Assembly: GCA_030595905.1 (NCBI GenBank)
Contig: JAUVLE010000002.1
Span: 1-49,439 of the forward strand
DNA: 49,439 nt
Reading direction: 5' to 3'
Source of the DNA: Candidatus Cloacimonadota bacterium
Lineage (GTDB): Bacteria; Cloacimonadota; Cloacimonadia; Cloacimonadales; TCS61
Shown here: positions 22,360 through 35,464 of the stretch, one piece after another
Position numbering within the stretch: the stretch's first letter is position 1
How the letters are laid out: the number at the start of each line of letters is the position of its first letter
Notes under the pieces: model-generated
Databases searched by the model: none
What the model was told of the DNA's origin: nothing
Seen by the model: only the letters and a program-made list of their open reading frames with translations
Position numbers and translations under genes: made by a program

Positions 22360-22397
22360 AAATGGATATCTTTTTAAGAATTGAGATTAGTTAAAAT

Positions 22398-22698
22398 AAT
22401 ATCCCCCGAACAGTCGCAAGCTCTCTACGGGGCAGGCAATATCGAACCCAGTGTAATAAAAAAAAGAAGATTACACGGGACAGGCACAGAATATCCAATG
22501 ATGAAGGAAAAAAATGAAAGAGAAGAATACGGAAACTAATCAGAAGAAGTTTGATTTGCAGGAACGATTTATTGATTGGTTTCTACTCATTCCTAAATCA
22601 CATTTGGGAATGCAATAATGGGAAAAAAGTATAAGGAAAATGGAGCGATAGCGACAAAAAAACTTGGATATTCCCTGTTGAGTATTGGATATTCAGAT
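22398..22698. repeat. Decayed copy of the four-helix-bundle cassette
   Basis: The 22398-22447 block matches 2870-2919. Perfect 11-bp inverted termini GAATATCCAAT (22489-22499) and ATTGGATATTC (22684-22694) bracket a truncated ORF. Confidence 0.7.
22514..22618 (+). pseudogene. Truncated four-helix-bundle protein gene
   Basis: MKEKNTETNQKKFDLQERFIDW matches the N-terminus MSKERKFDLQDRLIDY of 2932..3312, then diverges and stops after 34 codons. Confidence 0.65.
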
Positions 22699-22748
22699 TT
22701 TTTTATGTTTTTTATGTTGATCCAGTTAAAATATAAAAAGGAATCAAT

Positions 22749-24539
22749 ATGGCTTATAGAACTCATTTAATGGTATGTACCGGCACGGCTTGTGTTTCGT
22801 GTGGTGCTTTTAATATCAAGAAACTGTTAGAAGAAGAAATAAAAAAGCAGAAATTAGATAAAGAAATTCTGGTCGTTGGTACAGGTTGTCAGGGATTCTG
22901 TGCTCAGGGTCCTATTGTTGTAGTTCAACCGGATGATATTTTTTATCAATTGCTTTCTCCGGAAGATATTCCTTTCCTGGTAGAAGAACACTTTCTGAAA
23001 GGAAGACCTGTTAAAAAAATGATGTACACTCCACCCGGTGAAAAGATTCAAATTCCTACTGTTAGTGAAATTGGATTTTTCAGTAAACAGCGGTTGATCG
23101 CTCTCAGGAATAAGGGATTGATAGATGCCGAAAAGATCGATGATTATATTGGCAGGGACGGATATAATGCACTGATAAAAGTTTTAACATCGATGAGTTC
23201 CGAAGATATAATAAAAGAGATAAAGAATTCCGGGTTAAGAGGTCGAGGCGGCGGAGGTTTCCCAACAGGTTTGAAGTGGGATATCTGTAAAAATTCAAAA
23301 GGCGAACCCAAGTATATAATATGCAATGCCGACGAAGGTGATCCCGGTGCATACATGGATAGAAGTATCGTCGAATCCGATCCGCATGCAGTTATCGAAG
23401 GAATGCTGATAGGAGCAAAAGCAATAGGTGCACAGCAGGGATTTGTCTATATCAGAACGGAATATCCGCTTGCTATTCATAGATTGGAAGTTGCGATCGA
23501 GCAGGCACAAGAATATGGATTATTGGGAAAAGACATCCTTGGCAAGGGTTTTGATTTTGATCTTGAGATCAAACAAGGTGCAGGTGCTTTTGTCTGCGGA
23601 GAAGAAACATCCCTGATCCATTCGATTGAAGGAATATCACCCGAACCAAGTCAGAGACCTCCATTTCCAGCAGAATCCGGATTATGGGGAAAGCCGACTA
23701 ATATCAATAATGTGGAAACCTGGGCTAATGTTCCCAGAATAATTCTGCGTGGTGCAGATTGGTTTGCAGGTATTGGTACGGAGAAAAGCAAAGGAACAAA
23801 AGTTTTTTCTCTTGTGGGAAAAATAAATAATACAGGTTTGGTGGAAGTACCTATGGGAATCACTCTCAAAGAGATCATTTATGATATTGGCGGCGGAGTT
23901 CCCGGCGGGAAAAAATTTAAAGGTGTTCAAATCGGTGGTCCATCCGGAGGAGTTGTTCCTGCTTCTTTAATCGATCTGCCTGTCGATTATGAAAAATTAA
24001 CCGAAGTTGGTTCTATGATGGGCTCCGGGGGAATGGTGGTAGTTGATGAAGATACCTGCATGGTAGATCTTGCCAGATATTTCCTGGAATTTACCAGTGA
24101 TGAAAGTTGTGGAAAATGTGCAAGCTGTCGGGAAGGCAGTTCTGCAATGCTTGAAATTCTTACAAGAATAACAGAAGGAAAGGGGAAAGAAGGTGACATT
24201 GAATTCCTGGAAGAACTGGGATACGCAATAAAAGATGCTTCTCAATGTGGTCTGGGGCAAACACTTCCCAATCCGGTTCTTTCAACGATCGATAATTTCA
24301 GAGATGAATACGAAGCTCATATAAAAAATAAAAAATGTCCGGCTCATGTTTGCAAAGCATTAATTAGTTTTCATATCGACCCTGATAAATGTACCGGTTG
24401 TACAGTTTGTGCAATAAAATGTCCGGCTGATGCTATCTCCGGTAATCGCAAGGAACCTCATATTATCGATCAGGATAAATGTATTAAATGTGGTATTTGT
24501 TACACTGTTTGTAAATTTGATTCAGTGAAAGTGGAGTGA
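22749..24539 (+). CDS. NuoF/HndC/HydB-type NAD(P)H-binding FMN Fe-S subunit
   Basis: GLRGRGGGGFPTGLKW, ESCGKCASCREG, N-terminal thioredoxin-like 2Fe-2S domain, C-terminal CTGCTVCAIKCP/CIKCGICYTVC. Confidence 0.85.
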   Translation: MAYRTHLMVCTGTACVSCGAFNIKKLLEEEIKKQKLDKEILVVGTGCQGFCAQGPIVVVQPDDIFYQLLSPEDIPFLVEEHFLKGRPVKKMMYTPPGEKIQIPTVSEIGFFSKQRLIALRNKGLIDAEKIDDYIGRDGYNALIKVLTSMSSEDIIKEIKNSGLRGRGGGGFPTGLKWDICKNSKGEPKYIICNADEGDPGAYMDRSIVESDPHAVIEGMLIGAKAIGAQQGFVYIRTEYPLAIHRLEVAIEQAQEYGLLGKDILGKGFDFDLEIKQGAGAFVCGEETSLIHSIEGISPEPSQRPPFPAESGLWGKPTNINNVETWANVPRIILRGADWFAGIGTEKSKGTKVFSLVGKINNTGLVEVPMGITLKEIIYDIGGGVPGGKKFKGVQIGGPSGGVVPASLIDLPVDYEKLTEVGSMMGSGGMVVVDEDTCMVDLARYFLEFTSDESCGKCASCREGSSAMLEILTRITEGKGKEGDIEFLEELGYAIKDASQCGLGQTLPNPVLSTIDNFRDEYEAHIKNKKCPAHVCKALISFHIDPDKCTGCTVCAIKCPADAISGNRKEPHIIDQDKCIKCGICYTVCKFDSVKVE

Positions 24540-24543
24540 TCTT

Positions 24544-24906
24544 ATGAAGCTTATGGAAATAGAAGAAATACTTGAAGCAGAAGTTCTTACAGGAGAATAC
24601 GATCCTGAAATAGAAATAGAAATAGGTTGTTCATCAGATTTAATGAGTGAAGTTTTGGCTTATGGTGAACCATGTTCTATTCTCTTAACAGGCTTAACAA
24701 ATATCCAGGTTATCAATACTGCTAATGTAGCTGATATAAAACTAGTATGTTTTGTTATGGGAAAAATACCTGATGAAAAGATCATAAACTTAGCGAAAAA
24801 GAATGATATAACTGTATTTATAACAAAACTTACAACGTTTGAGAGTTGTGGGCGGTTGTATAAAAATGGGCTTAAGAGCTGTAGTTATTTTGATCTCGAT
24901 AAATAA
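24544..24906 (+). CDS. DRTGG-domain protein
   Basis: 120 aa. SDLMSEVL...LLTGLTN...VFITKLTTFESCGRLY pattern typical of the small DRTGG proteins found in HydABC/Hnd-type operons. Confidence 0.6.
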   Translation: MKLMEIEEILEAEVLTGEYDPEIEIEIGCSSDLMSEVLAYGEPCSILLTGLTNIQVINTANVADIKLVCFVMGKIPDEKIINLAKKNDITVFITKLTTFESCGRLYKNGLKSCSYFDLDK

Positions 24907-24908
24907 AA

Positions 24909-25841
24909 ATGGATAATAATAAAACAACCACCAAGATTCAAGAGCTGACTTATGAGCTGAAAATTGATGATGTAATGTGTAAGAATATTGAAACAGTCAG
25001 TTCAAAAATGCCTATTTCTCAATTAAGAGATGTTTTGTACAAAAAGCGAATTTCAGGAGTTCCAGTTGTAAATGATGATAAACTTGTTGGTATTGTAAGT
25101 ATTGAAGATTTTATTAAATGTATGGAACAGGAAGAAATGGATGCCTTAGTAGAAGATAAAATGACCAAAAATATAAAGACTCTTTATGCTGACGAACCAC
25201 TTGTTCATGCTGTTAAGAAATTTGAAAAATATGGATTTGGTCGTTTTCCTGTGCTTTCAAGGAAAGATAAAAAATTAGTGGGTATTATTACTAAAAGTGA
25301 TATTATTAAAGGAATACTAAAGAAATTAGAATCTGTTTATCATGATGAAGAGGAACGAAGATATCGAGCAAGTCATATCTTTAATGATATTGTTGCGGAT
25401 GAGGTGTTTCTAAAATTTCAATATTTTGTAGAAGGCAAGAACTTTGATAAAGCAGGAGAAGCTTCCACCGGACTAAAAAAAACGCTTTATAGGCTTGGTC
25501 TCTCACCGGATATTATTCGCAGAGCAGCAATTTCCACTTATGAAGCAGAAATTAATATTGTTGCATATACTGATGGAGGAGAAATAATAGCTTATATAGA
25601 TCCTCATCAAATTAAAATCATTATAATAGATAAAGGACCTGGTATTCCTGATGTTGAGAAAGCCTTGCAACCCGGCTTTTCCACTGCTCCCGGATGGGTT
25701 AGAGAATTAGGATTCGGAGCCGGCATGGGACTTCCGAATATCAAGAAATTCACCGATAAGATGACTCTAAGATCGACAGTTGAAAAAGGAACGCATTTGG
25801 AAATCATAATAAAGCTCAGTGATTATCGTAATGAAGATTAA
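24909..25841 (+). CDS. CBS-pair + HATPase-like (anti-sigma-factor-type Ser kinase-like) protein
   Basis: Two CBS repeats (ISGVPVVNDDKLVGIVS; FGRFPVLSRKDKKLVGIIT). C-terminal DKGPGIPD...GFGAGMGLPNIKK ATPase motifs. Confidence 0.65.
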   Translation: MDNNKTTTKIQELTYELKIDDVMCKNIETVSSKMPISQLRDVLYKKRISGVPVVNDDKLVGIVSIEDFIKCMEQEEMDALVEDKMTKNIKTLYADEPLVHAVKKFEKYGFGRFPVLSRKDKKLVGIITKSDIIKGILKKLESVYHDEEERRYRASHIFNDIVADEVFLKFQYFVEGKNFDKAGEASTGLKKTLYRLGLSPDIIRRAAISTYEAEINIVAYTDGGEIIAYIDPHQIKIIIIDKGPGIPDVEKALQPGFSTAPGWVRELGFGAGMGLPNIKKFTDKMTLRSTVEKGTHLEIIIKLSDYRNED

Positions 25842-25865
25842 TATTTATTTTCGATCTCACCTCAA

Positions 25866-25920
25866 TCCTCTCCTAAGAGGAGAGGAAGTTTTATTTTCCC
25901 TTCTCCTTGCAGGAGAAGGG
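25866..25920. repeat. Two perfect GA/CT-rich hairpins
   Basis: TCCTCTCCT-AAG-AGGAGAGGA (25866-25886) and CCCTTCTCCT-TGC-AGGAGAAGGG (25898-25920). Confidence 0.8.
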
Positions 25921-25953
25921 GTTAGGGGCTGAGGTTCTGAAAAAAGAGGGAAA

Positions 25954-26301
25954 ATGATGAATTTGAAAGATATTGTGAAAATGCTCGATCTGAAAGTGGT
26001 TTCCGGGGATATTGATAGAGAAGTGAGTGCAGGTTATTCAAGTGATCTGCTTAGTGATGTTATTGCAAATGCTCAAAAAGATAACATCTGGATCACTTTG
26101 CAAATTCATGTAAATATTGTGGCTGTGGCAAATTTACAGGAACTTGCAGGCATCATTCTTGTAAATGGACGACAACCTGAACAAATAACTTTGAAGAAAG
26201 CAGAACAGGAAAATATTCCTATTCTATTAACAGAATTACCCACTTTTGAAATTGTGGGGAAACTCTATGAAATGGGAATTCACGGGAACTCAATAAATTG
26301 A
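25954..26301 (+). CDS. DRTGG-domain protein, second copy
   Basis: Paralog of 24544..24906 (SSDLLSDVI, ILLTELPTFEIVGKLYEMG). Confidence 0.6.
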   Translation: MMNLKDIVKMLDLKVVSGDIDREVSAGYSSDLLSDVIANAQKDNIWITLQIHVNIVAVANLQELAGIILVNGRQPEQITLKKAEQENIPILLTELPTFEIVGKLYEMGIHGNSIN

Positions 26302-26390
26302 ATATTTAATATTGAAGATTGAATATTTACCCTTGTGCTTTCCGGGAATTCATTGTTACAAAAGTTAGTATTGTTAGTATTGTTCGTTGC
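26297..26390. repeat. AATTGAATAT-type intergenic repeat ending in GTTCGTTGC
   Basis: AAATTGAATATTTAATATTGAAGATTGAATATTT ... GTTAGTATTGTTAGTATTGTTCGTTGC. Its first bases supply the TGA stop of the DRTGG gene. Confidence 0.65.
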
Positions 26391-26431
26391 TAAAAGAAAG
26401 AAGGAATAAGAGATAATGAGGACTCAGCCGA

Positions 26432-27175
26432 ATGCTCAAAAAAATCAAAGCGGATTTGCATATTCATACCTGTCTCTCCCCGTGCGGTGATATGAATATG
26501 ACGCCTGCAGCGATCGTAGAAAAAGCAAGATCAAAAGGATTGGATGTGATCGGTATTTGTGACCATAATTCATCTGAAAATGTAGCTGCTGTAAAGAAAG
26601 CCGGAGAAAAAAATAATTTGAAAGTTCTTGGCGGAATGGAAGTTACGTCTAAAGAAGAGGTGCATATTCTTGCTCTTTTTGATGAAGAAAAAAAATTATC
26701 TGAACTCCAGGAAATCGTTTATGAAAATATGGAAGGTGTAAATGATGAGGAATTTTTTGGATACCAACTAATAGTAGATGAGCAAGGTGAGATCATCGAT
26801 CTTAATAAGAAATTATTGATTGGAGCAACCGACCTGACAGTCGAGAGAATAGTTGAGCTTATACATTCTTTAAATGGACTTGCTATTGCATCGCACGTTG
26901 ATCGTGAAAGATTCAGCCTGATCGGTCAACTGGGTTTTGTTCCGGAAGGATTGGATTTGGATGGTCTGGAATTATCACCGAGATATATGTCAGAAAAGAA
27001 AAAATTTGATTTTCCAATGTCATCGGGCTTACCTCTCGTCACTTTTTCCGATGCTCATTTTCCAGATGATATTGGTAAAACTTCAACCACTTTCCTGCTT
27101 GATGACATAACAGTGAAAGAGTTGAAAAAGGCATTAAAGAATAAAGATGGAAGATCTATCCTTGCATATTCTTGA
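26432..27175 (+). CDS. PHP-domain metal-dependent phosphoesterase
   Basis: ADLHIHTCLSPCG ... GICDHNS ... ASHVDR ... FSDAH His/Asp motifs. Confidence 0.75.
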   Translation: MLKKIKADLHIHTCLSPCGDMNMTPAAIVEKARSKGLDVIGICDHNSSENVAAVKKAGEKNNLKVLGGMEVTSKEEVHILALFDEEKKLSELQEIVYENMEGVNDEEFFGYQLIVDEQGEIIDLNKKLLIGATDLTVERIVELIHSLNGLAIASHVDRERFSLIGQLGFVPEGLDLDGLELSPRYMSEKKKFDFPMSSGLPLVTFSDAHFPDDIGKTSTTFLLDDITVKELKKALKNKDGRSILAYS

Positions 27176-27596
27176 TGTGGTCGAGAATTCGATCGAAGCA
27201 AATGCTTCGAAAATTGAGATAAAGATTATAGAGGAAAAAAACAAAGATTTACTCGCAGTCGAGATAAAGGATAATGGAAGAGGAATGAACAGGGAAACTA
27301 TTAACAAAGTGCTGGACCCGTTCTATACAACAAGAACGACACGAAGAGTAGGTATGGGACTTTCTCTCTTGGCTCAAGCTGCAAGAGAGAGTAATGGAAA
27401 TTTTGAGATAAATTCAAAGGTTGGTGTTGGCACAGAGGTTAAAGCTGTTTTTCAATATAGTCATATCGATCGTAAACCTATCGGAGATATGAAAAATACA
27501 CTTATAACCTTAATGGTCTCTCATCCTGAAATAAATTTTGTTTATGAACATCAAGATGAAGATGGTAATTATGTTCTGGATTCAAATGAAATATAA
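27147..27596 (+). CDS. HATPase_c-domain ATP-binding protein
   Basis: LDVVENSIEA (N box), IKDNGRGM (G1), GMGLSL (G2). Confidence 0.7.
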   Translation: MEDLSLHILDVVENSIEANASKIEIKIIEEKNKDLLAVEIKDNGRGMNRETINKVLDPFYTTRTTRRVGMGLSLLAQAARESNGNFEINSKVGVGTEVKAVFQYSHIDRKPIGDMKNTLITLMVSHPEINFVYEHQDEDGNYVLDSNEI

Positions 27597-27719
27597 GGTG
27601 AAATATCAAATGACAAAAAACAAAATTCAAATAAATCTCAATAACCGAAATTTCAAATTCAAAACAAATAAAAGTATTTGTTCGTTTGTTATTTGTAATT
27701 TTTAAAAAAGGGTATAAAT

Positions 27720-30700
27720 ATGATTAATCTAATTATTAATGGAACAAAGGTTGAAGTAGAAGAAGGTTCCACAATTCTTCAAGCAGCAGATAAACTTGGT
27801 ATAAAGATTCCGACTCTATGTTATCATAAAGCATTGCCGGCTTATGGAGCTTGCCGGTTATGTGTCGTCGAGGTGATTCAGGGAAACGGGAAGACTTCTA
27901 TTCAGGCTTCCTGCACTTATCCTGCTCAAGAAGGTCTTATTATCAAAACCGATACGGAGCGAGTGATAAAAACCCGTAAAATTATGCTTGAATTGCTGCT
28001 GGCAAAATGCCCGGATTCTGAAGTTCTGAAGGATCTTGCTGAAGAAATGGGAGTTGGGAAACCAAGGATCGAACTGAAGAATGAAGATTGTATTCTCTGC
28101 GGATTATGTGTGCGAATGTGTAAAGACAGGATGGGAAAAGGAGCGATCGGTTTTGCAAATAGAGGGTTTAAACGTGTAGTTGTGCCTGCTTTTGATTCTC
28201 TGTCTGATGTATGCCAGACCTGTGGAGCCTGCGTTAGTGTTTGTCCAACCAAAACCGGAGTAAAATTAGAAAAGATCACGGAAAATGAACCTGTTCCGAT
28301 CCTATCTGAATTTGATGAAGGATTATTAACAAGATCAGCTATTTACATTCCGTATGCTCAGGCTGTTCCAAATTATGCCAATATCGATCCGGATCATTGT
28401 GTGCAGCTAACTACCGGAGAGTGCAAGATATGTACGGAATTCTGTGAAGCGGAAGCGATCGATTTTGACCAAAAAGAAAAATTTCTAAACCTGAATATCG
28501 GCTCGGTGATCATTGCAAACGGATCTGAAAAATTTGATCCAACTGCATTGCATGAATATGGTTACGGCAGGTTTAAAAATGTTCTTACAAGTATCCAGTT
28601 TGAAAGAGTATTGGCAGCTTCTGGCCCTTTTGAAGGTCATCTGCAAAGACCTGCTGACGGAAAAGTTCCCACCAAAATTGCATGGATACAATGTGTGGGT
28701 TCAAGAAACGAGAATTCTCATATGCCGTATTGTTCTTCTGTATGTTGTATGTACGCTCTCAAAGAAGCGATAATTGCCAAGGAGCATGTAAAAACCGTTG
28801 AACCTACAATTTTCTTTATGGATATTCGTGCTTACGGAAAAGACTTTGATAAATTCTATGATCAGGCAAAAGATGTGGGAGTAAGGTTTATTCGCTCACG
28901 AGTTGGAAAGATAAAAGAGATAAAAGAAACAGGAAACCTGGAATTATATTATGTGAAAGAAACCGGTGAACTTGAAATTGAAGAATTTGAAATGGTCGTA
29001 CTTTCTATCGGACTTACACCTACAAGAGATATTGTGGATGTAACCGATAAACTCGATGTTCGCCTTAATGAATTTAATTTTATAGAGAATACAGGAATGT
29101 CATCCATCCAGACGACCAGACCCGGGATTTATGTTTGCGGTCCGGCAGCTTCACCAAAAGATATTCCGGAAACTGTTATGCAGGCATCGGGAGCAGTTGC
29201 AGGTTCTGCGGAAATACTTTCGGAAGTTCGCGGAACCGAAATAACTGAAAAAGTTTATCCTGAAGAGATCGATGTAAGCGGGAAGAAACCCAGGATCGGA
29301 GTTTTCGTGTGCCATTGCGGTATCAATATCGGAAGCGTGGTAAATGTTCCTGAAGTAGTTAAATTTGCAAAAACCCTGCCCAATGTTGTCTATGTCGAGG
29401 AAAATCTTTTCACCTGTTCACAGGATACTCAGGAAAAAATGAAGGAAATAATCCATGAATATAAGCTTAATCGAGTTGTTGTTTCCTCCTGCTCGCCGAG
29501 TACTCACGAACCTTTGTTCCAGGAAACATTGAGAGAAGCCGGATTGAATCCGTATCTTTTCGATATGGCAAATATCAGAAACCAATGCAGCTGGGTTCAT
29601 AAAGATGATAAAGAAGGTGCCACTGAAAAGGCAAAGATCCTTACAAAAATAGCGATTGGAAAAGTAAGACTTTTAGAATCACTTCATTCGATTTCTCTTG
29701 ATGTTAGACAAACAGCTCTCGTTATAGGTGGAGGACTTTCCGGTATGACAGCAGCTCTTTCTGTTGCAGAACAGGGTTTTGAAGTAGCACTCATCGAAAG
29801 AAAAGATAAATTGGGTGGAAATCTTCACCGGCTTGCCGAATCTGTTGATGGAAAGAAAATCTCGGATTATCTCGCTGAACTCAATGATGAAATTAACAAG
29901 CATCCGCTCGTAAAAGTTTTCACGAATTCGGAAGCTAAGGAAATCGACGGATATATCGGAAACTATCAAACGAAGATATTTAATAAAAAGGATAATAAAG
30001 AAGCTGTCTTTGAACACGGAGTGATTATTATTACTACCGGTGCGAATGAATCTAAACCCGAAGAATATTTCTATGGGAAAAATAAGAATGTTATAACTCA
30101 TCTCGATTTTGAAATAGACTTTGAAGAAAATAAAAAGGTTTATCAAAAACTAAAAAATATTGTAATGATCCAATGTGTCGGTTCTCGTGATGAAAAGCGT
30201 CCTTACTGCTCGAGAGTTTGCTGCACTCAGTCTATAAAAAATGCTATTCGCTTGAAAGAATTAAATCCGAAAATGAACGTTTATGTTCTTTACAGGGATA
30301 TCAGAACTTATGGTTTTTATGAGAAATTCTATCAGAAAGCAAGAGAACTCGGTGTTATTTTCATCAGGTATGAAGAGGATGCAAAACCGGTCGTAGAAAT
30401 AGACGAAGAGCGTACGGTTCTGAATGAAAAAGGATTAACTTGTACGATTAAGGATCATGTTTTAAATCAGGAAGTTGTAATTTCTCCTGATAAATTGATC
30501 CTGGCTTCTGCAATGGTTCCGCAGGAAGATGCCGGAGAACTATCTCAGATGCTGAAACTTCCGCTTAATGAAGACAATTTCTTTATGGAAGCTCACGTTA
30601 AACTTCGCCCTGTAGATTTCTCTGCCGAAGGATTATTCTTAGCCGGTCTTGCTCATTCTCCAAAAGGAATCGAAGAGACAATTTCACAGGCAAAAGCAGC

Positions 30701-30992
30701 AGCAGAAAGAGCATGTTCCATTATCTGCTCAGATGAATATATGTCGGAAGCATATATTGCCGAGGTTGATCTGGATATGTGTGCGGGCTGCGGAATGTGT
30801 GTTGCCGTTTGTCCGTATGGAGCACCGGAGTTATTCTGGCAAAATGGGAAAGAATATGCTCATATAAATTCCGGACTTTGTAAAGGTTGCGGAAGTTGTG
30901 CGGCTGTTTGCCCTTCCGGTGCCATGCAGCAGCTCGGATATAAAGAAGAACAAACCCTGGCAATGCTTAATGAAGCATTGGAAGGTTGGTAA
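27720..30992 (+). CDS. hdrA: Fusion: HoxU/NuoG-N-terminal-like [2Fe-2S]+[4Fe-4S] domain + two-module HdrA lacking its first GxGxxG segment
   Basis: N-terminus INGTKVEV...LCYH...GACRLC, CILCGLCVRMC, CQTCGACVSVCPT. From about aa 197 it is colinear with HdrA 8231 residue 122 onward. The only GxGxxG is the second-module VIGGGLSGMT. Confidence 0.8.
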   Translation: MINLIINGTKVEVEEGSTILQAADKLGIKIPTLCYHKALPAYGACRLCVVEVIQGNGKTSIQASCTYPAQEGLIIKTDTERVIKTRKIMLELLLAKCPDSEVLKDLAEEMGVGKPRIELKNEDCILCGLCVRMCKDRMGKGAIGFANRGFKRVVVPAFDSLSDVCQTCGACVSVCPTKTGVKLEKITENEPVPILSEFDEGLLTRSAIYIPYAQAVPNYANIDPDHCVQLTTGECKICTEFCEAEAIDFDQKEKFLNLNIGSVIIANGSEKFDPTALHEYGYGRFKNVLTSIQFERVLAASGPFEGHLQRPADGKVPTKIAWIQCVGSRNENSHMPYCSSVCCMYALKEAIIAKEHVKTVEPTIFFMDIRAYGKDFDKFYDQAKDVGVRFIRSRVGKIKEIKETGNLELYYVKETGELEIEEFEMVVLSIGLTPTRDIVDVTDKLDVRLNEFNFIENTGMSSIQTTRPGIYVCGPAASPKDIPETVMQASGAVAGSAEILSEVRGTEITEKVYPEEIDVSGKKPRIGVFVCHCGINIGSVVNVPEVVKFAKTLPNVVYVEENLFTCSQDTQEKMKEIIHEYKLNRVVVSSCSPSTHEPLFQETLREAGLNPYLFDMANIRNQCSWVHKDDKEGATEKAKILTKIAIGKVRLLESLHSISLDVRQTALVIGGGLSGMTAALSVAEQGFEVALIERKDKLGGNLHRLAESVDGKKISDYLAELNDEINKHPLVKVFTNSEAKEIDGYIGNYQTKIFNKKDNKEAVFEHGVIIITTGANESKPEEYFYGKNKNVITHLDFEIDFEENKKVYQKLKNIVMIQCVGSRDEKRPYCSRVCCTQSIKNAIRLKELNPKMNVYVLYRDIRTYGFYEKFYQKARELGVIFIRYEEDAKPVVEIDEERTVLNEKGLTCTIKDHVLNQEVVISPDKLILASAMVPQEDAGELSQMLKLPLNEDNFFMEAHVKLRPVDFSAEGLFLAGLAHSPKGIEETISQAKAAAERACSIICSDEYMSEAYIAEVDLDMCAGCGMCVAVCPYGAPELFWQNGKEYAHINSGLCKGCGSCAAVCPSGAMQQLGYKEEQTLAMLNEALEGW

Positions 30993-31230: not shown

Positions 31231-32223
31231 ATGAAATTTTACTCAGTTTCAATGAAACAGTGGGTAGAAAACCTCAGCAATGTGGCTTCAGAATTTCAGA
31301 TTTTTGCACCCATCCTCCAAAACGATTTTTTAGATTATGAATTGATCACCCCCGATAATATCGAGCAAATTATTTATAATACAGCCAAACCTACCACACC
31401 ACTCAAGGCTTTCTTTTTCCCCGTAAAGGAAAACGTGGTTATAGATAAAAAAGCAGATAAACAGCGGGTGATAATCGGCGTTCCTTCCTGCGATCTGCAT
31501 GCGGTAAATCTGCTTGATAAGATATTTCTCGATAAAGATTTCCTGGATATATATTACAAAAAGAACAGGGAAAATACTATTCTCATCGGCACGGATTGTT
31601 ATAAGATCACCGATAGCTGCCACTGCACAAGTTACGGACTGAATCCCTATCCTGAGAAAAACAGCGACATCACCTTATCCATTGTAGAGGATATCGTCAT
31701 CCTGAATGTGCAAACCGAAAAAGGTGAGAAATTCCTGGAGAAAATTAAAGATGCGGAATTCAAAGAAGGAATAGCAGCAGAGGACAAGTTAAAGGAAAAA
31801 AGAGACGCCGTTATACAAGAACTCGATTCCAAAAATAAAGAACTACCCGATGCGGAAAGAACCAGGAAAGGGATCGAAAGTTCTGTCGATGAAGTCTGGA
31901 AAGAGTATGCAGAGAAATGCGTTTCCTGCGGAGCCTGCGCTGCTATCTGCCCGACCTGTCATTGCTTTCTTTTGATAGATAAAGAGAATTTTGAAAAGGT
32001 AAAAAACTGGGATAGCTGCCAGTATCCGGCTTTCGAGCGTGTTGCTGCCGGCGAAGACCCGCTGGGAAAAATTTATGAGCGGCTGAAGAACCGTTATCTT
32101 TGTAAATTTGTGCATAAACCCGATATGTTCGGTGAAATTGCCTGTACAGGCTGTGGAAGATGTATCGATGCCTGCATCGGCAAGATAGATAAGAACGAAA
32201 TTATTTTAAAGATATGTAAGTAA
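31231..32223 (+). CDS. FlxB / sulfhydrogenase-beta (HydB) / AsrA-like 4Fe-4S protein
   Basis: Paralog of 13715..14746. CVSCGACAAICPTCHCF and CTGCGRCIDAC. Confidence 0.7.
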   Translation: MKFYSVSMKQWVENLSNVASEFQIFAPILQNDFLDYELITPDNIEQIIYNTAKPTTPLKAFFFPVKENVVIDKKADKQRVIIGVPSCDLHAVNLLDKIFLDKDFLDIYYKKNRENTILIGTDCYKITDSCHCTSYGLNPYPEKNSDITLSIVEDIVILNVQTEKGEKFLEKIKDAEFKEGIAAEDKLKEKRDAVIQELDSKNKELPDAERTRKGIESSVDEVWKEYAEKCVSCGACAAICPTCHCFLLIDKENFEKVKNWDSCQYPAFERVAAGEDPLGKIYERLKNRYLCKFVHKPDMFGEIACTGCGRCIDACIGKIDKNEIILKICK

Positions 32224-32237
32224 CAAAAGGACAATTC

Positions 32238-33059
32238 ATGTCAGAAAAAAATATCTATAAACCCATAAAGTATAAACTGGATAAAGTAGTAGAAGAAACT
32301 TCTCTTATTAAAACATTTTTCATATCCGCTAAAGAAGAATTTGAATTCAAGACCGGACAGTTCGTGGAAGTTACCATCGATGGAATCGGCGAAGCGCCCT
32401 ACACACCTTCTTCTTCACCGTATGTGAAAGATAAAATGGAAATAACCATTATGAAAGCCGGTTACGTTACGGATAAAATGCACCAACTCAAAGGCGGGGA
32501 AACACTCGGGATTCGAGGTCCATTCGGAAAGGGATACCCGATAGAAGATTTCTACGGAAAAGAAGTTCTTATCCTCGGCGGCGGTGTGGGACTTGCTCCG
32601 CTGCGCTGCCTGATCCTTACCTTGCTGGGGGAAGAAGATAAATTCAAAAAGATCAATATCTGTTTCGGCGCAAAAACACCGGCAGATTTCATCTATAAAG
32701 ACTGGTATGATGAATTGAGGAAACACAAGAATGTGGAACTTCTGCGAAGTGTGGATAAAGCCGACGGTAGTTGGCAGGAAACGGAAGGACTGGTAACGGT
32801 TCTATTAGAAAAAGTAGATATAAATTATAAAGAAGCAGTTGCAGTGGTTTGCGGTCCTCCCATTATGATGAAATTCGGAACGTTCCGCCTGCTGGAAATG
32901 GGTGTAAAAGAAGAAAATATCTATCTTTCAATGGAAAAAAATATGTCGTGTGGTTTGGGAAAATGCGGGCACTGTGCGATGGGAGATTATTTTGTTTGCA
33001 AAGACGGTCCTGTTTTCACTTATAATGAAATCAAAGATTATCCGGATATCTGGATATAG
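32238..33059 (+). CDS. FlxA / sulfhydrogenase-gamma (HydG) / AsrB-like FAD-NAD(P)-binding [2Fe-2S] protein
   Basis: Paralog of 14754..15578. GQFVEV..APYTPSS, ILGGGVGLAPL, VCGPPIMMK, CGLGKCGHCAMG..C. Confidence 0.75.
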   Translation: MSEKNIYKPIKYKLDKVVEETSLIKTFFISAKEEFEFKTGQFVEVTIDGIGEAPYTPSSSPYVKDKMEITIMKAGYVTDKMHQLKGGETLGIRGPFGKGYPIEDFYGKEVLILGGGVGLAPLRCLILTLLGEEDKFKKINICFGAKTPADFIYKDWYDELRKHKNVELLRSVDKADGSWQETEGLVTVLLEKVDINYKEAVAVVCGPPIMMKFGTFRLLEMGVKEENIYLSMEKNMSCGLGKCGHCAMGDYFVCKDGPVFTYNEIKDYPDIWI

Positions 33060-33070
33060 AAGAGAAAATT

Positions 33071-33568
33071 ATGAGCAAAAAAATATTAATCGATCTGGAA
33101 AAGTTCAGGAATACCGAAGACGGTAAATATAATTACGGTGAATGCATCTATGATTTTCACCCCGAAAATATCGGCATGAAAGACCTGGTGGAAAAGGCAA
33201 TGATGATGTTCGCCTGCCGCAAATGTGAGGATGCTCCCTGCATTGCCGTTTGCCCGGCAGATGCTCTGGAACGTAATGAAGATGGATTTACGGAAAGAGC
33301 AACCAACCTGTGTATCGGTTGTCAGTCCTGCGTTGCAGTATGTCCTTTCGGTACAATTATGAACGATATATTCACAGCCAAAAAATCCATCTGTGATCTT
33401 TGCGAATTTACTGATGATACACAATCCCTGAAATGCATGGAAACAGCTCCCGTGGGCGCTATCACATTCACGGATATGGATGAGAACGAAGACGAAAATA
33501 TTTTTAAATTGAATGATAAAGTCCTGGTGAAGGAAGTTGCATGGGAAAAACTAATGAATAACGAGTGA
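33071..33568 (+). CDS. HycB/HybA-like poly-ferredoxin electron-transfer subunit
   Basis: CRKCEDAPCIAVCP, CIGCQSCVAVCPFG, CDLC. Confidence 0.65.
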   Translation: MSKKILIDLEKFRNTEDGKYNYGECIYDFHPENIGMKDLVEKAMMMFACRKCEDAPCIAVCPADALERNEDGFTERATNLCIGCQSCVAVCPFGTIMNDIFTAKKSICDLCEFTDDTQSLKCMETAPVGAITFTDMDENEDENIFKLNDKVLVKEVAWEKLMNNE

Positions 33569-33653
33569 CGTAAGCTATGCTTTGCAGGATAGAATATGAA
33601 AGATCACTTAGTGTTACTTCGTGTTCTTAGCGGCTAATTAAGGAAAAGAAAAT

Positions 33654-34583
33654 ATGGGTAAAGAAATTTTTTATTTTTTAATATTTCCGGGATTGTTATT
33701 TTCCGGAGTGATAGGCGGTTTTTTATCTTGGTTCGATAGAAAAATAACAGCACGTGTGCAGTTCAGACAGGGACCTCCGATCCTGCAGCCATTTTATGAT
33801 TTCGTAAAACTGCTGGCAAAGGAAACCATCGTTCCCTTGAAGGGTTCGAGGTTAACGTTTCTTTTTGCTCCTGTGTTTGCATTATTCGGCGCAACCATGT
33901 CTTCCGTGTTCATTCTGCTGCCTGCTCTTGGAATTGAAACAGGTTTTTCCGGCGATATTATTGTATTAATATATCTATTAAATATTCCTTCCGTATGCTA
34001 TATTATTGGTGCACTCGCTTCCGCAAATCCGATGGCATCTGTGGGTGCTTCGCGGGAGATGAAACTGATCTTGAGCTATGAAGTTCCATTCCTGCTGGTT
34101 CTGCTTTCCATAGTTATAAAAGCTGATATGAGTATTAAATTATCTGAAATTATTGCTGTTCAATCTGCAAATGGTGCTTTTATCGGAAGTATATCGGGGA
34201 TCATCGGCTTTATCACAATATTGATGTGTATCCAGGCAAAACTTGGTCTGGTTCCATTCGATATTGCAGAAGCGGAAGGTGAGATCTGCGACGGAGTGGC
34301 AATAGAGTATTCTGGGTCTGCTCTGGCTCTCATCAAATTAACCAAATATATCATGCTTTTTGCCATTCCCGCTCTGGTAGTATTGTTGTTTATGGGTGGG
34401 ATGAATTTTGTGGGAATAAATATTTTGTGGTCTATCCTGAAAGTACTGCTCGTGGTTTTATTGATAACTCTTATCAGGAATACGAATCCGCGGGTAAAGA
34501 TCAAACAGGCGATGAAGTTCTTCTGGGTGTGGATGAATCTTTTTGCAATCGTTGCTGTAATTCTGGCAATTTTTGGCTTATAA
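33654..34583 (+). CDS. mbhM: Membrane subunit, NuoH/HycD/MbhM family
   Basis: DRKITARVQFRQGPP and PFDIAEAEGE motifs. Polytopic. Confidence 0.8.
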   Translation: MGKEIFYFLIFPGLLFSGVIGGFLSWFDRKITARVQFRQGPPILQPFYDFVKLLAKETIVPLKGSRLTFLFAPVFALFGATMSSVFILLPALGIETGFSGDIIVLIYLLNIPSVCYIIGALASANPMASVGASREMKLILSYEVPFLLVLLSIVIKADMSIKLSEIIAVQSANGAFIGSISGIIGFITILMCIQAKLGLVPFDIAEAEGEICDGVAIEYSGSALALIKLTKYIMLFAIPALVVLLFMGGMNFVGINILWSILKVLLVVLLITLIRNTNPRVKIKQAMKFFWVWMNLFAIVAVILAIFGL

Positions 34584-34593
34584 GGAGATAGAG

Positions 34594-35007
34594 TTGGGTT
34601 TAAAAGAAAAATGCTTTAAAAAATCATTATGGCTGTTTCACTTCAGTGCTGGTTCTTGTAATAATTGCGATATCGAAATACTGGATTGTCTTACTCCAAA
34701 ATTCGATGTGGAAAGATTCGGTATGAAACTGGTGGGCAGTGTTCGTCATGCCGATGTGATATTGGTAACGGGTATTGTAACCAGAAAAACGAGGGAAAGG
34801 CTGAAGGAAATCTACAAGCAGGCTCCCAAACCGGTCGTGATCGTTGCTATTGGCGCTTGTGCCTGTACCGGCGGGATATTCGCATCAGGTTATAATTTTG
34901 ATGGTCCGGTAGATAAAGTAGTTCCCGTCAATGCCTACATCCCCGGCTGTCCGCCAAAACCGGAAGCAATGCTGGCAGGCATCATGAAACTGTTAAATAA
35001 AATATAA
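34594..35007 (+). CDS. mbhJ: Group-4 [NiFe]-hydrogenase small subunit (NuoB/MbhJ family)
   Basis: CNNCDIE, GACACTGG, IPGCPPKPE cluster ligands. TTG 34594, 6 nt after AGGAG, is preferred; the ORF track offers TTG 34573. Confidence 0.8.
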   Translation: MGLKEKCFKKSLWLFHFSAGSCNNCDIEILDCLTPKFDVERFGMKLVGSVRHADVILVTGIVTRKTRERLKEIYKQAPKPVVIVAIGACACTGGIFASGYNFDGPVDKVVPVNAYIPGCPPKPEAMLAGIMKLLNKI

Positions 35008-35020
35008 GGAACCGAATTCT

Positions 35021-35464
35021 ATGGATATTGATAAATTTATTGATGAGATCAAAAAGAAATTCCCGAACGAAATAAAACAAACTGAAGTTGTTCATACAAA
35101 ACGGCTAATGATCTATATTTCCAAAGAAGCTCTGCTTAAAGTTACGGAATATATTTTTAAAGACCTGGGACTGCGGTATATCATTGTAACTGCAATGGAT
35201 TCCAAAAAAGGGTATGAGATCATTTATCATTTTTCCGATGATAGCACAGGCTGGATAATAAATCTGAACGTTGTTCTGCCCAGAGAGAAACCGGAGATAG
35301 AATCGTTAACGCCGGTCGTGTATGGCACCGAGTGGATAGAAAGAGAGATATTCGATCTTCTGGGTATTACATTTTTGAATCATCCGAATCCAAAAAGATT
35401 CTTATTTGCAGAAGACTGGCCGGAAGGAAAATATCCGTTCCGAAGAGAACAGGAGAAAAAATAA
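35021..35464 (+). CDS. mbhK: NuoC/MbhK-family subunit
   Basis: WIEREIFDLLGITFLNHPNPKR signature. Confidence 0.75.
   Translation: MDIDKFIDEIKKKFPNEIKQTEVVHTKRLMIYISKEALLKVTEYIFKDLGLRYIIVTAMDSKKGYEIIYHFSDDSTGWIINLNVVLPREKPEIESLTPVVYGTEWIEREIFDLLGITFLNHPNPKRFLFAEDWPEGKYPFRREQEKK

Follow-up and report, generated by a model that had tools for sequence, protein, structure and literature searches.

Gene content of the locus

The window, by which we mean the whole 49,439-nt stretch of DNA analyzed, appears to derive from an uncultured Cloacimonadota-like bacterium in which one HdrA flavin domain is divided between two predicted subunits. The genes concerned form a plus-strand operon (19936..30992). 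Upstream, it is bounded by a strong terminator-like hairpin (19881..19910, plus strand) consisting of a 13-bp stem and a T-run, which separates it from rhodanese genes; downstream, the 239 nt that follow position 30992 are an AT-rich spacer in which a weak hairpin and a TTGACA box occur. As originally predicted, an FrhB-like protein is encoded at the head of the operon (19936..21060), directly past the hairpin. This flavo-iron-sulfur protein consists of an N-terminal 2x[4Fe-4S] region, FrhB_FdhB_N, and FrhB_FdhB_C (Pfam matches at E=9e-39 and 1e-18), and its closest solved structures are the F420-reducing subunits 8rja_E and 8riu_B.

The second gene (21096..21983) encodes a 295-aa NuoE-like protein in which the N-terminal half of an HdrA module (21096..21470, aa 1 to 125) precedes a BfuC/HydC/NuoE-like thioredoxin-like [2Fe-2S] domain (21501..21983) in the same ORF. 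The latter domain matches PF01257 (E=4e-49) and HydC (8a6t_C, E=3.5e-45 over aa 136 to 291). It is followed by a small thioredoxin-like accessory protein of the HndB/HydD type, assigned by Pfam (21940/21976..22359) and missing from several related loci, and then by a 389-nt spacer (22360..22748) with only short ORFs (at most 57 aa); related loci L001 to L003 have a gap of roughly 260 to 300 nt at the equivalent place. Next comes the NADH/FMN subunit BfuB (22749..24539, 596 aa). Between bfuB and the fusion gene that opens with bfuA lie five small putative regulatory genes (24544..27596, plus strand), encoding DRTGG, CBS plus GHKL-ATPase, DRTGG, PHP phosphoesterase, and GHKL-ATPase proteins in that order, and the same set occupies the same position in L001 to L004 and L006. 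The operon ends with a single 1,090-codon frame (27720..30992, plus strand), whose start is the first ATG past a stop.

BfuB is colinear over its full length with NiFe-HydB (7t2r_B; aa 2 to 593 against aa 3 to 594, E=1e-257), with Cys and Gly-rich motifs visible in the alignment, and nearly as close to HydB 7q4v_B (E=4e-252). Its Pfam domains follow the expected order: an N-terminal Trx-like [2Fe-2S] domain, the FMN/NADH site, a [4Fe-4S] domain, and a C-terminal 2x[4Fe-4S] ferredoxin-binding domain. The NuoE-like, HndB-like, and NuoF-like genes named in the original prediction are thus real. Of the scaffold types proposed for them, the HydABC/Hnd type holds, whereas a plain HoxEFU diaphorase does not, BfuB being closest to bifurcating HydB. 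By its family features the NADH module is of the bifurcating HydBC/Bfu type, and coupled turnover of NAD(H) and ferredoxin is predicted.

The part of the window upstream of the operon contains a gene for an HdrC-like protein (15917..16393), three for Sec-containing FlpD/MvhD-like proteins, and sulfur-related genes that encode two rhodaneses, a YeeE/YedE transporter, and a DsrE-like protein. FlxA/FlxB-like (AsrB/AsrA-like) gene pairs occur twice (13703..15578 and 31231..33059). A group-4 [NiFe] hydrogenase cluster with HycI, whose large subunit carries RICGIC and DPCYCC motifs, starts 2.6 kb downstream. We also observed a second double hdrA (8231..10879 plus 10858..11277), which is broken by a one-base frame change.

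Division of the double HdrA between two chains

The 1,090-aa protein joins a NuoG/HydA-type N-terminal Fe-S domain, assigned here as a type-2 BfuA domain, to HdrA sequence in one ORF, as originally predicted. Residues 1 to 180 (27720..28259) contain a 2Fe-2S domain (Fer2_4, E=7e-18) and two 4Fe-4S motifs; among solved structures they match WorA/BfuA best (9mqx_A, E=3e-39, aa 2 to 178), followed by the N termini of HydA, FdhA, and NuoG. The ligands of the [2Fe-2S] cluster (C34/45/48/65) and of the two [4Fe-4S] clusters (C124/127/130/134 and C165/168/171/175), predicted to form A1, A2, and A4, are invariant across 20 homologues (4+8 Cys). No His-ligated cluster motif was found in this domain, C97-P98 being its sole remnant. 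According to the Bfu-family survey (PMC9304861), type-2 BfuA lacks A3 and A5 and feeds electrons via the A4 cluster.

The remainder of the protein matches Methanothermobacter wolfeii HdrA (5odc_A; E=4e-171 for the whole fusion). Residues 186 to 515 (28275..29264) are the C-terminal half of a first HdrA module; within them, aa 188 to 442 match HdrA residues 254 to 505. From the inserted ferredoxin domain, this half includes the second Cys motif (C227/235/238/242); it also includes the remainder of a TrxR-like FAD domain and an HA4-type cluster (C325/338/342/343) with Lys348. The second module (29286..30992, aa 523 to 1090) is complete: aa 523 to 756 and 932 to 1079 match HdrA residues 3 to 237 and 495 to 642, and aa 767 to 1002 are homologous to the C-terminal half of module 1. 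It comprises an N-terminal cluster domain (C531/533/566/591), a FAD domain (GGG670-672, C819/830/834/835, Lys840), and a C-terminal 2x[4Fe-4S] domain; the inserted ferredoxin domain and the CxxC pair are both absent from it. Pfam and solved-structure matches revealed no H-cluster, molybdopterin/pterin, or other catalytic domain in the fusion, in agreement with the original prediction, and every stretch is assigned.

In one respect the original prediction of a two-module HdrA fails: the fusion holds one and a half modules, and the missing half resides on the NuoE-like subunit (21096..21470). This N-terminal half aligns to HdrA residues 143 to 261 (E=3e-45) and contains the GxGxxG FAD Rossmann fold, the sequence DKTFPTNDC57AMC60, and C109/C112/C115/C119. 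These last four Cys residues are the first motif of the inserted ferredoxin domain, which needs eight; its second motif is on the fusion. The unsplit double HdrA P0059 matches both pieces, with 60% identity between its aa 1 to 135 and the N-terminal half and 69% identity between its aa 110 to 1018 and fusion aa 165 to 1090; the unsplit copy in the window itself (8231..10879) is 49% identical and colinear. In effect, a BamE-like double HdrA has been split, with a complete bfuC…bfuB…bfuA cassette between the halves; the cut falls in TrxR1, the first flavin domain, within its inserted ferredoxin domain. Because the halves of TrxR1 are on two chains, both polypeptides must come together for one FAD domain and one 2x[4Fe-4S] domain to be complete. 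The ligands known from M. wolfeii HdrA (four Cys, C386/399/403/404, and Lys409 at CC+5) are all found on one chain in module 2; in module 1, the four-Cys cluster and K348 are on the fusion and GxGxxG is on the NuoE-like chain. Across the pseudo-dimer, the HdrA N-domain, inserted ferredoxin domain, and C-terminal ferredoxin domain each occur exactly once, the first and last in module 2 and the inserted domain in module 1, shared by the two chains.

The same arrangement recurs widely. In 25 of 25 fusion loci with enough upstream DNA, drawn independently from different studies and phyla, the HdrA N-terminal half lies directly before NuoE, in a single ORF with it in 19 of them. At least 95 protein clusters, all from metagenome-assembled genomes (MAGs), share the fusion architecture, and they are spread over many phyla of bacteria and archaea. 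Of the best 120 matches, 95 clusters are of the fusion type, and in none of these does the fusion chain itself carry the N-terminal half. Both the motif starting GxGxx and CxGCxxCxxxC are kept in 26 of 26 N-terminal fragments, and four Desulfobacterota loci have Sec (TGA) in place of C60, which corresponds to Cys197 in M. wolfeii HdrA. These patterns indicate that the HdrA N-terminal half is under selection. They also contradict the notion that the split is an artefact (a misassembly, frameshift, or decaying pseudogene) that left an ordinary Hnd-like cluster beside an hdrA fragment. Such events do occur in this window, where the other double hdrA is truly interrupted by a one-base frame change, but here the reading frames are intact, all cofactor ligands are kept, and some lineages place selenocysteine at a ligand position, so that we regard the chance of an artefact as negligible.

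Proposed wiring and alternative roles

We think it probable that the operon encodes one soluble multi-flavin electron-transfer complex, with Bfu wired to the low-potential arm of HdrA and the FrhB-like protein as the likely third port. The sequences show a HydBC-type module (BfuB with FMN, BfuC, and the HndB-like accessory protein) that is covalently joined to a BamE-like pseudo-dimeric HdrA. Because the polypeptides are covalently linked, the FMN site and the HdrA-type FAD sites belong to one complex, as the original prediction had it. Chain connectivity and homologous structures suggest an electron path from FMN through the BfuB [4Fe-4S] cluster, A2/A4, and the inserted-ferredoxin clusters to the FAD of TrxR1, running in either direction. 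In canonical HdrA, low-potential electrons leave through the inserted ferredoxin domain (PMC13518236), and the Bfu A-cluster chain is therefore most likely on the low-potential arm. The N-terminal helix bundle of BfuC contacts BfuA in BamGHI (preprint 10.64898/2026.04.10.717634), which indicates that the two ends of the cassette can sit close together, as insertion into a domain requires. By analogy with class II benzoyl-CoA reductase, where Bfu enters BamE at the C-terminal ferredoxin domain via BamF, a different path could equally be favored here. A Lys lies beside the CC motif at both FAD sites (K348 and K840), and the bifurcating flavin thus cannot be assigned from sequence alone. A crude neighbor-joining tree, in which Bfu-type, GltD-type, and unsplit HdrA forms are interleaved, suggests that function may differ between lineages.

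The complex would operate as a two-stage bifurcation or confurcation cascade in which NAD(H) and ferredoxin are linked to the other two ports of HdrA. In most relatives these ports would be MvhD/FlpD and HdrCB; the operon itself includes neither MvhD nor an HdrB/CCG protein. Here the third port is most likely the FrhB-like flavoprotein co-transcribed with these genes, which may use a two-electron cofactor, such as an F420-like or NAD(P)-like carrier. To our knowledge, F420 is not expected in this lineage, so the substrate of the FrhB-like protein is a guess, and, as the original prediction stated, the physiological acceptor or donor is not evident from the window. That prediction also cast HdrA as the catalytic subunit. 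HdrA does stand in the place of a hydrogenase or formate dehydrogenase domain, but it is better described as an electron-bifurcating hub whose substrate sites would be in its partners (the FrhB-like protein here, HdrBC and MvhD in most relatives).

More tentatively, the inserted-ferredoxin loop of BamE-type double HdrA proteins may be a general “socket” for NAD(P)H modules, GltD-like in HdrL and BfuCBA here. Two bifurcation devices that differ in mechanism would then act in series, in the order opposite to that of benzoyl-CoA reductase, and the low-potential arm of HdrA would be hard-wired to a Bfu port that splits electrons between NAD+ and ferredoxin or gathers them in reverse. If so, these loci represent a class of hierarchical electron-bifurcating enzyme that is widespread among uncultured anaerobes yet undescribed, as well as a protein domain rebuilt from two subunits after insertion of an operon into its gene.

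Gene neighborhoods also raise other roles. A Bfu-driven counterpart of FlxABCD-HdrABC or HdrL-HdrABC could act as an NADH/ferredoxin-linked reductase of (hetero)disulfides, persulfides, or DsrC, with the high-potential electron passing from HdrA to HdrC(B) and nearby sulfur-trafficking genes supplying the substrate. Among the flanking ORFs of the 25 related loci are 14 FlpD/MvhD, 17 HdrC-like, and 9 HdrB/CCG proteins, and the split gene is often immediately preceded by hdrC-hdrB (e.g., in L004, L005, L011 to L013, L021, and L022). In the window, the HdrC-like, YeeE/YedE, rhodanese, and DsrE-like genes would fit, as would the proposal that HdrL/HdrABC complexes serve DsrC in sulfate reducers (PMC5947623). 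However, the strong hairpin separates these genes from the operon, the window encodes neither dsrAB nor dsrC, and no HdrB/CCG protein (HdrB or HdrD) was found across the 49 kb by Pfam scans of nearly all plus-strand ORFs of at least 100 aa or by tblastn with an HdrB query. We therefore consider a disulfide reductase unlikely at this locus.

Quite unlikely, in our assessment, is that the complex is the input or output arm of a [NiFe] hydrogenase, in which Bfu confurcates NADH and reduced ferredoxin and HdrA mainly conducts electrons to an Mvh-type enzyme or to the Mbh-type one downstream, replacing HydABC [FeFe] hydrogenase. In its Bfu part the complex most resembles HydB of the hydrogenase type (7t2r_B and 7q4v_B), and the regulatory cassette between bfuB and bfuA, of a kind that accompanies HydABC operons, is kept across related loci. 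Four [NiFe] small subunits are found among the flanking ORFs of relatives, L004 has FlpD, [NiFe] small and large subunit, and HycI genes a few kb downstream, the group-4 cluster in the window is genuine, and Cloacimonadota clade B has been reported to have Mvh-Hdr in place of Hnd (PMC12590816). Yet no hydrogenase gene lies within 10 kb at most of the related loci, the Mbh-like cluster past the 239-nt spacer has its own AsrA/AsrB-like and ferredoxin genes, and a plain conduit leaves two kept FAD sites and the CxxC/Sec pair unexplained. It is very improbable that the complex is orthologous to class II benzoyl-CoA reductase (BamBCDEFGHI) or is some other tungsten-enzyme-linked dearomatizing system. 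Parts resembling BamGHI and BamE are indeed present, and the seven [4Fe-4S] clusters equal E1 to E7, but no AOR-family (BamB) domain or BamC was found in the scanned ORFs of the window, and the operon lacks genes for BamD and BamF. In addition, the way the subunits are fused and the attachment point differ, and Cloacimonadota and the other FCB and PVC phyla that host these loci are not known as aromatic degraders.

Comparison with known bifurcating complexes

Several characterized systems share parts of this architecture. The cofactor motifs of BfuB, BfuC, and the BfuA domain are those of the Bfu family (HydABC, NiFe-HydABCSL, NfnABC/Stn, and WorABCSL; Schut et al. 2022, PMC9304861), but the partner module of BfuA is HdrA here, and BfuC bears a foreign N-terminal half-domain. 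A term search of that survey's text found no HdrA-fused BfuA class; the survey itself left out metagenomic data, and 18 of its 57 clades are uncharacterized. Methanogen complexes (MvhAGD-HdrABC, Fdh/Vhu-Hdr-Fwd, and F420-dependent HdrA2B2C2) have HdrA domains and ligands that are all present here, and the association of FrhB-like protein with HdrA recalls F420H2-dependent Hdr. In contrast to these, HdrA here is a fused pseudo-dimer with each accessory domain kept once, the operon has no hydrogenase, Fdh, or HdrB, and the low-potential exit is predicted to be taken by Bfu rather than by ferredoxin or polyferredoxin. FlxABCD-HdrABC, the NADH-dependent Hdr of Desulfovibrio, shares the concept of an NADH-oxidizing module coupled to HdrA; its module is a PyrK/AsrB-type FAD protein acting via MvhD, whereas the one here is an FMN enzyme of the HydBC type and has a ferredoxin site of its own.

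HdrL is a double HdrA with an NAD(P)H module between the two Cys motifs of the inserted-ferredoxin domain, usually followed by mvhD. Its insert is a single GltD-like domain within one chain, as in the HdrL-type relative P0056 (aa 158 to 547; Fer4_20 at 158 to 236 and Pyr_redox_2 at 254 to 547), whereas the window has a three-subunit Bfu cassette, which physically separates the host HdrA domain into two parts. Relative to the HdrL insertion point, the break is about 35 residues earlier, and Pfam detects no Fer4_20 or GltD segment in the window protein. The closest Delongbacteria relatives of the HdrA part, L009 and L010, are of the HdrL type, and an FrhB-like gene directly precedes the double HdrA in both, as it does in L008 and L017.

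Class II benzoyl-CoA reductase of Geobacter metallireducens (BCRII, BamBCDEFGHI) is the only characterized complex with both HydBC-type and HdrA-type bifurcation modules, held in BamGHI and BamE (PMC9304861; preprint 10.64898/2026.04.10.717634). The original prediction stated that it would be refuted by a well-characterized orthologous complex of this composition; given BCRII, the combination of modules as such is not unprecedented, although composition and wiring differ in the window. Both systems pair a HydBC-type module with a fused-dimer HdrA, and the BfuA homologue BamI is likewise of the short type 2. BamE has seven [4Fe-4S] clusters, two FADs, a Cys59-Cys62 pair, and its bifurcating FAD in the first TrxR domain (preprint 10.64898/2026.04.10.717634). 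Its clusters E1 to E7 equal in number the seven [4Fe-4S] of the double HdrA here, an equivalence drawn from architecture, cluster count, and the preprint's numbering; by residue numbering rather than alignment, Cys59-Cys62 and the bifurcating FAD would correspond to C57/C60 in the window and K275 of P0059. A Lys is found at both flavin sites here, in contrast to Gln768 at the second site of BamE. The window system is without the tungsten BamB/BamC subunits and, in the operon, without BamD/BamF; its BfuA is covalently fused to HdrA, and its TrxR1 is split over two chains. Its Bfu module joins HdrA at the inserted-ferredoxin (low-potential) domain, whereas that of BCRII enters by way of the C-terminal ferredoxin domain and the MvhD-like BamF. 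What appears new relative to BCRII is thus the lack of a tungsten subunit and a Bfu module spliced into the low-potential exit domain of HdrA, not its input. A pairing of Bfu-type and HdrA-type modules previously found only in one aromatic-ring reductase is widespread in uncultured microbes.

Composition of the BfuA::HdrA operon

The open reading frame (ORF) at 27720..30992 (+) is a single unbroken frame of 1090 codons. Residues 1-180 of its product, BfuA::HdrA, form a NuoG/HydA-type N-terminal Fe-S domain (Pfam Fer2_4, E=7e-18, plus 4Fe-4S motifs). The top solved match to residues 2-178 is WorA (9mqx_A, E=3e-39), a short "type 2" BfuA from the Bfu complex of the tungsten aldehyde oxidoreductase, followed by the N-termini of HydA, FdhA, and complex I NuoG. 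Aligned as a whole, the fusion matches HdrA of M. wolfeii (5odc_A) at E=4e-171: residues 188-442, 523-756, and 932-1079 correspond to HdrA residues 254-505, 3-237, and 495-642, respectively, and residues 767-1002 share homology with the C-half of module 1. We rejected the possibility of a cryptic catalytic domain, as Pfam, NCBIfam, and PDB sequence searches account for every stretch of the protein; the predicted NuoG/HoxU-like domain does run into HdrA without an H-cluster or molybdopterin domain. The original prediction of two HdrA modules holds for module 2, which is complete, but module 1 starts only at HdrA residue ~254 and lacks the N-half of its FAD Rossmann fold. No NCBIfam model scored above threshold for the fusion, and its relatives are named "FAD-dependent oxidoreductase" or "heterodisulfide reductase subunit A" in public records.

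Upstream, a terminator-like hairpin with a 13-bp stem (19881-19910) lies 5' of the operon genes. The first of these encodes an FrhB-like protein (19936..21060), followed by a 295-aa protein that joins an HdrA N-half to a HydC/NuoE-like domain (21096..21983), an HndB-like gene ending at 22359, and the 596-aa HydB/NuoF-like BfuB (22749..24539); the neighbouring subunits named in the original prediction are all present. BfuB carries an N-terminal Trx-like [2Fe-2S] domain and a C-terminal 2x[4Fe-4S] domain and aligns from end to end with two solved homologues, the Acetomicrobium mobile NiFe-HydB (7t2r_B, E=1e-257) and the A. woodii HydB (7q4v_B, E=4e-252). The operon does contain an NADH/FMN subunit, as a HoxEFU-type diaphorase would, but judged by this full-length alignment the subunit belongs to the bifurcating BfuB/HydB type rather than to plain NuoF. 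Domain searches detected no HdrB/CCG, AOR/BamB, or hydrogenase domain inside the operon.

The HndB-like gene and bfuB are separated by a 389-nt spacer (22360..22748) that holds only short ORFs (<=57 aa). No Rfam family matched at gathering thresholds anywhere in the window, this spacer included; the same position is a gap of 260-300 nt in the related loci L001-L003, and the spacer is absent from more distant loci. Between bfuB and bfuA lie five small putative regulatory genes (24544..27596, +) in the order DRTGG, CBS+GHKL ATPase, DRTGG, PHP phosphoesterase, and GHKL ATPase. They occupy the same place in L001-L004 and L006, and gaps of 3-4 kb are found where the set would sit in L012, L013, L017, L021, L025, and L027. 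The set is probably a regulatory cassette inherited from HydABC-type operons.

An HdrA flavin domain divided between two genes

The portion missing from module 1 was found in the 295-aa protein, of which residues 9-127 match HdrA residues 143-261 (E=3e-45) and residues 136-291 match HydC/NuoE. This N-half (21096..21470) contains GxGxxG, DKTFPTNDC57AMC60, and the first CxxCxxCxxxC motif of the inserted ferredoxin domain; C60 corresponds to Cys197 of M. wolfeii HdrA, counted in the HdrA alignment. In the fusion, the cysteines invariant across 20 diverse homologues comprise C34/45/48/65, assigned to a [2Fe-2S] cluster, and C124/127/130/134 plus C165/168/171/175, assigned to the two BfuA [4Fe-4S] clusters; past these, a single additional motif, C227/235/238/242, is invariant. 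Because the ferredoxin domain needs two such motifs and the fusion has one, with the other on the N-fragment, the break lies after the first Cys motif of the inserted domain and before the second. It is therefore hard to avoid the conclusion that this domain and TrxR1, the FAD domain of module 1, would be rebuilt from two polypeptides. Unsplit paralogues prove, at the level of sequence, that the two pieces are colinear: in P0059, a 1018-aa protein from a related contig, residues 1-135 match the N-fragment (60% identity) and residues 110-1018 match fusion residues 165-1090 (69% identity), and an unsplit copy in the window at 8231..10879 has the same colinearity at 49% identity. For work on protein evolution, the split domain offers a clean example of an inserted module.

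Module 2 (residues 523-1090) comprises an N-terminal cluster domain (C531/533/566/591), a complete FAD domain (GGG670-672, C819/830/834/835, K840), and a C-terminal 2x[4Fe-4S] domain. It has no CxxC pair, since "LAESVDGKK" stands at the position of that motif, and the inserted ferredoxin domain is absent. Each accessory HdrA domain thus occurs once per pair of modules, giving seven [4Fe-4S] clusters and two FAD.

This arrangement is widely conserved. Among the best 120 protein clusters at the 90% identity level, 95 contained BfuA plus the HdrA C-half (plus module 2), and not one of these 95 carried the N-half; 22 were ~1480-aa proteins with an intact N-half and one was unsplit. The N-half lies directly 5' of the NuoE-like gene in all 25 fusion loci with enough upstream sequence, in 19 of them within the same ORF. 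In four Desulfobacterota loci it is a separate ORF of ~130 aa that stops right past the first Cys motif and has a TGA at the C60 position ("NDCAM[U]"), and the fusion of L020 has a TGA within its CHCG motif. We considered whether the N-fragment could be a decaying remnant or an assembly artefact, and rejected both because selenocysteine occurs at ligand positions and the motifs are invariant in 26/26 N-fragments.

In our scan of species-representative genomes, the full fusion came from MAGs only, belonging to Cloacimonadota (L007, 92% identical and probably the source lineage), Planctomycetota, Spirochaetes, Acidobacteriota, Thermoanaerobaculia, Bacteroidota, Stahlbacteria, and Desulfobacterota, as well as one Altiarchaeales archaeon and another uncultured archaeon. 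Named protein matches added KSB1, Krumholzibacteriota, Fermentibacteria, Zixibacteria, WOR-3, and one Thermoplasmata MAG. Variants also occur. The genome of L006 has a second version (13523..18452) consisting of a 427-aa HdrA-N::NuoE-like protein, BfuB, and a 591-aa BfuA::HdrA-C-half; the last has no second HdrA module, so a single HdrA, and not only a double one, has received the Bfu cassette. In L004 (3975..7166), BfuB is joined to a GltD-like NADPH domain in a 1063-aa protein.

In the ~1480-aa relatives, the two Cys motifs of the same inserted ferredoxin domain flank a GltD-like NAD(P)H module, which in the Delongbacteria protein P0056 consists of Fer4_20 (aa 158-236) and Pyr_redox_2 (aa 254-547). 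Its insertion point is ~35 residues downstream of the Bfu break. Proteins of this kind are HdrL, a heterodisulfide-reductase/glutamate-synthase fusion that was named in Desulfobacterium autotrophicum and has been detected in the proteome of S. fumaroxidans (PMC2702500, PMC5947623). In a crude neighbor-joining tree of the HdrA part, calculated without support values, Bfu-type, HdrL-type, and unsplit forms are interleaved and the window protein is closest to the Delongbacteria HdrL proteins. A tree of this kind suggests either that modules have been swapped at a single site or that paralogues have been homogenised; given the interleaving, we do not claim monophyly, and hence a single origin, for the Bfu insertion.

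Gene neighborhood and candidate partners

We counted 100 ORFs flanking the core in 25 loci and found HdrC-like (Fer4_8) proteins (17), FlpD/MvhD (14), response regulator domains (12), HdrB/CCG (9), FrhB-like proteins (5), and [NiFe] small subunits (4). From these counts, the family overall looks like a Bfu-linked HdrABC-MvhD system. The only partner inside the window operon is the FrhB-like protein, which among solved structures best matches F420-reducing subunits (8rja_E, 8riu_B) from enzymes of Ca. Ethanoperedens; an FrhB-like gene is also directly 5' of the double HdrA in L008, L009, L010, and L017. A Pfam scan covering almost every + strand ORF of at least 100 aa, and tblastn with an HdrB query, found no CCG protein in the 49-kb window. 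Upstream of the hairpin are a YeeE/YedE transporter, two rhodaneses, a DsrE-like gene, an HdrC-like gene, an AsrA/AsrB-like pair, three more HdrA-like genes, and three selenocysteine-containing FlpD genes. Candidate roles are sulfur-linked, hydrogenase-linked, or the reduction of a two-electron cofactor at FrhB, the last of which we rank, with low confidence, as likeliest for the window operon.

The sulfur-trafficking genes (DsrE-like, YeeE/YedE-type transporter, and the two rhodaneses) lie within the Hdr gene island at 237..596 and 16960..19865 (+). In L008 the FrhB-like gene is directly 3' of an HdrC-like gene, which identifies the sulfur block as an insertion specific to the window lineage. 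Elsewhere, an upstream HdrC-like protein of L004 (1..1254) has response-regulator and GcvH (lipoyl-carrier) domains, and a lipoate-protein ligase gene adjoins hdrCB in L005; by analogy with sulfur-oxidising sHdr systems, these hint at a lipoyl-protein substrate.

Four HdrA-type genes are present in the window in total. Those of 430 aa and 549 aa lie in the regions 1549..7671 and 12606..16393 (+), together with a second AsrA/AsrB-like pair, an HdrC-like gene, and two proteins of ~380 aa with Fer4_8 motifs, one with a weak FrhB_C match. The unsplit double HdrA (8231..10879 and 10858..11277, +) contains a one-base frame change at ~10860 ('LNED|E..' vs 'MFMEAHVKLRPVDF') that places its C-terminal ferredoxin domain in a 139-aa ORF of its own; a sequencing error, a naturally split gene, or a pseudogene could each account for it. 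Three FlpD/MvhD-like genes (~1040-1570, ~7784-8215, and ~12184-12600, +), which the ORF finder overlooked, each carry an in-frame TGA in 'G*HPGDCHY'. They probably encode selenoproteins, and each is directly 5' of an HdrA-like or FrhB-C/Fer4 gene. Within the Hdr cluster is also a gene for a '23S rRNA intervening sequence protein' (bAvd-like four-helix bundle; 2932..3312, +), as is likewise the case in the distant relative L004 (18453..18857).

On the 3' side of 30992, an AT-rich spacer of 239 nt contains a weak hairpin and a TTGACA box, so the next genes (AsrA/AsrB-like, ferredoxin, and group-4 [NiFe] hydrogenase) are probably transcribed separately from the operon. This cluster (31231..43525, +) encodes AsrA/AsrB-like proteins (sulfhydrogenase beta/gamma-like; 9nez_B, E=3e-32), a 165-aa polyferredoxin, and a membrane-bound hydrogenase with Mrp-type antiporter subunits and HycI. 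The enzyme is a true group-4 [NiFe] hydrogenase, and its large subunit has RICGIC and DPCYCC. An NAD(P)H-type module ahead of an Mbh-like enzyme is unusual in itself. Farther downstream, the CsgG-like, FadL/TodX-like, and Big_7/BACON-domain genes (43744..49012, +) point to a diderm FCB-group organism, which fits the Cloacimonadota assignment.

Proposed electron-transfer model and relation to known enzymes

The gene fusion physically couples the HydBC-type and HdrA-type modules, and biochemistry is not needed to prove their association; an FMN site and HdrA-type FAD in a single complex, as predicted, follow from it. Such a complex would have to hold the BfuB FMN with NADH and ferredoxin sites, the BfuC/BfuA cluster chain, and two HdrA-type FAD domains with their clusters. 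This make-up is near certain and the wiring only plausible. Low-potential electrons leave the bifurcating FAD of canonical HdrA through the inserted ferredoxin domain (PMC13518236), and in type-2 Bfu enzymes, according to a 2022 Bfu survey, cluster A4 relays electrons between the third module and the BfuBC core (PMC9304861). Electrons could accordingly move along a chain of FMN, BfuB [4Fe-4S], A2/A4, the inserted ferredoxin clusters, and the FAD of the split TrxR1, which would be the bifurcating flavin by analogy with BamE, the fused double HdrA of class II benzoyl-CoA reductase (BCRII). HdrA would take electrons from a mid-potential donor and divide them, one share going to a high-potential acceptor and the other to the Bfu port; Bfu would in turn partition its share to NAD+ and ferredoxin, and the whole cascade could operate in reverse. 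A Lys at CC+5 is kept in both flavin sites (K348, K840), so that, by sequence, either FAD could be the bifurcating one.

The idea that a single complex can combine a HydB-type FMN site with an HdrA FAD site is not a new one. This pairing was predicted for years in BCRII (BamBCDEFGHI) and shown structurally in a 2026 preprint (PMC9304861; 10.64898/2026.04.10.717634). Flavin-based bifurcation modules were previously thought to act singly, and the preprint calls two in one complex unprecedented and unreported until then (10.64898/2026.04.10.717634). BamBCDEFGHI thus already holds both module types, but we found no description of a BfuA::HdrA fusion or an HdrA split in the full-text literature searched, only Bam-Bfu, HdrL, and generic 'hdrABC/mvhADG', and an earlier mention is possible. 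The Bfu survey includes Bam-Bfu, F420-Bfu, Nfn-Bfu, and others and excludes metagenomic sequences; a term search of its text did not find an HdrA-fused BfuA class (PMC9304861). Cloacimonadota surveys contain only "MvhADG-HdrABC" or "Hnd" calls (PMC12590816). The observation behind the original prediction is therefore confirmed and its interpretation partly supported. What is new is the covalent coupling, the splitting of a flavin domain by a three-gene cassette, the attachment at the low-potential arm, and the lack of a tungsten enzyme. The coupled family comprises at least 95 protein clusters from Cloacimonadota, Planctomycetota, Spirochaetota, Acidobacteriota, Bacteroidota, Desulfobacterota, and Altiarchaeales and Thermoplasmata MAGs; metagenome surveys now record its genes merely as "hdrA" or "FAD-dependent oxidoreductase". 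The operon of about six genes is a clonable target for learning which flavin bifurcates, in what way two bifurcation sites are linked in a chain, and by what means uncultured fermenters and syntrophs balance NADH, ferredoxin, and a third carrier.

BCRII provides the closest points of comparison. BamE is reported to contain clusters E1-E7 and two FAD, a count equal to that of the split double HdrA (10.64898/2026.04.10.717634). Mapped by the residue numbers quoted in the preprint, Cys59-Cys62 and Lys280 of its first TrxR domain would correspond to C57/C60 of the N-half and K275 of P0059, a match that supports TrxR1 as the bifurcating flavin; BamE Gln768 was placed by the same numbers. In BamGHI, the Bfu-type part of BCRII, the N-terminal helix bundle of the NuoE-like subunit touches the BfuA homologue (10.64898/2026.04.10.717634), which indicates that the ends of an inserted cassette can be near each other, as domain insertion needs. 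In BCRII, however, Bfu feeds the input side of HdrA via BamI, the C-terminal ferredoxin domain, and BamF (10.64898/2026.04.10.717634), an order opposite to the one proposed here. The family described here differs from BCRII in having no tungsten enzyme and, apparently, in its wiring.
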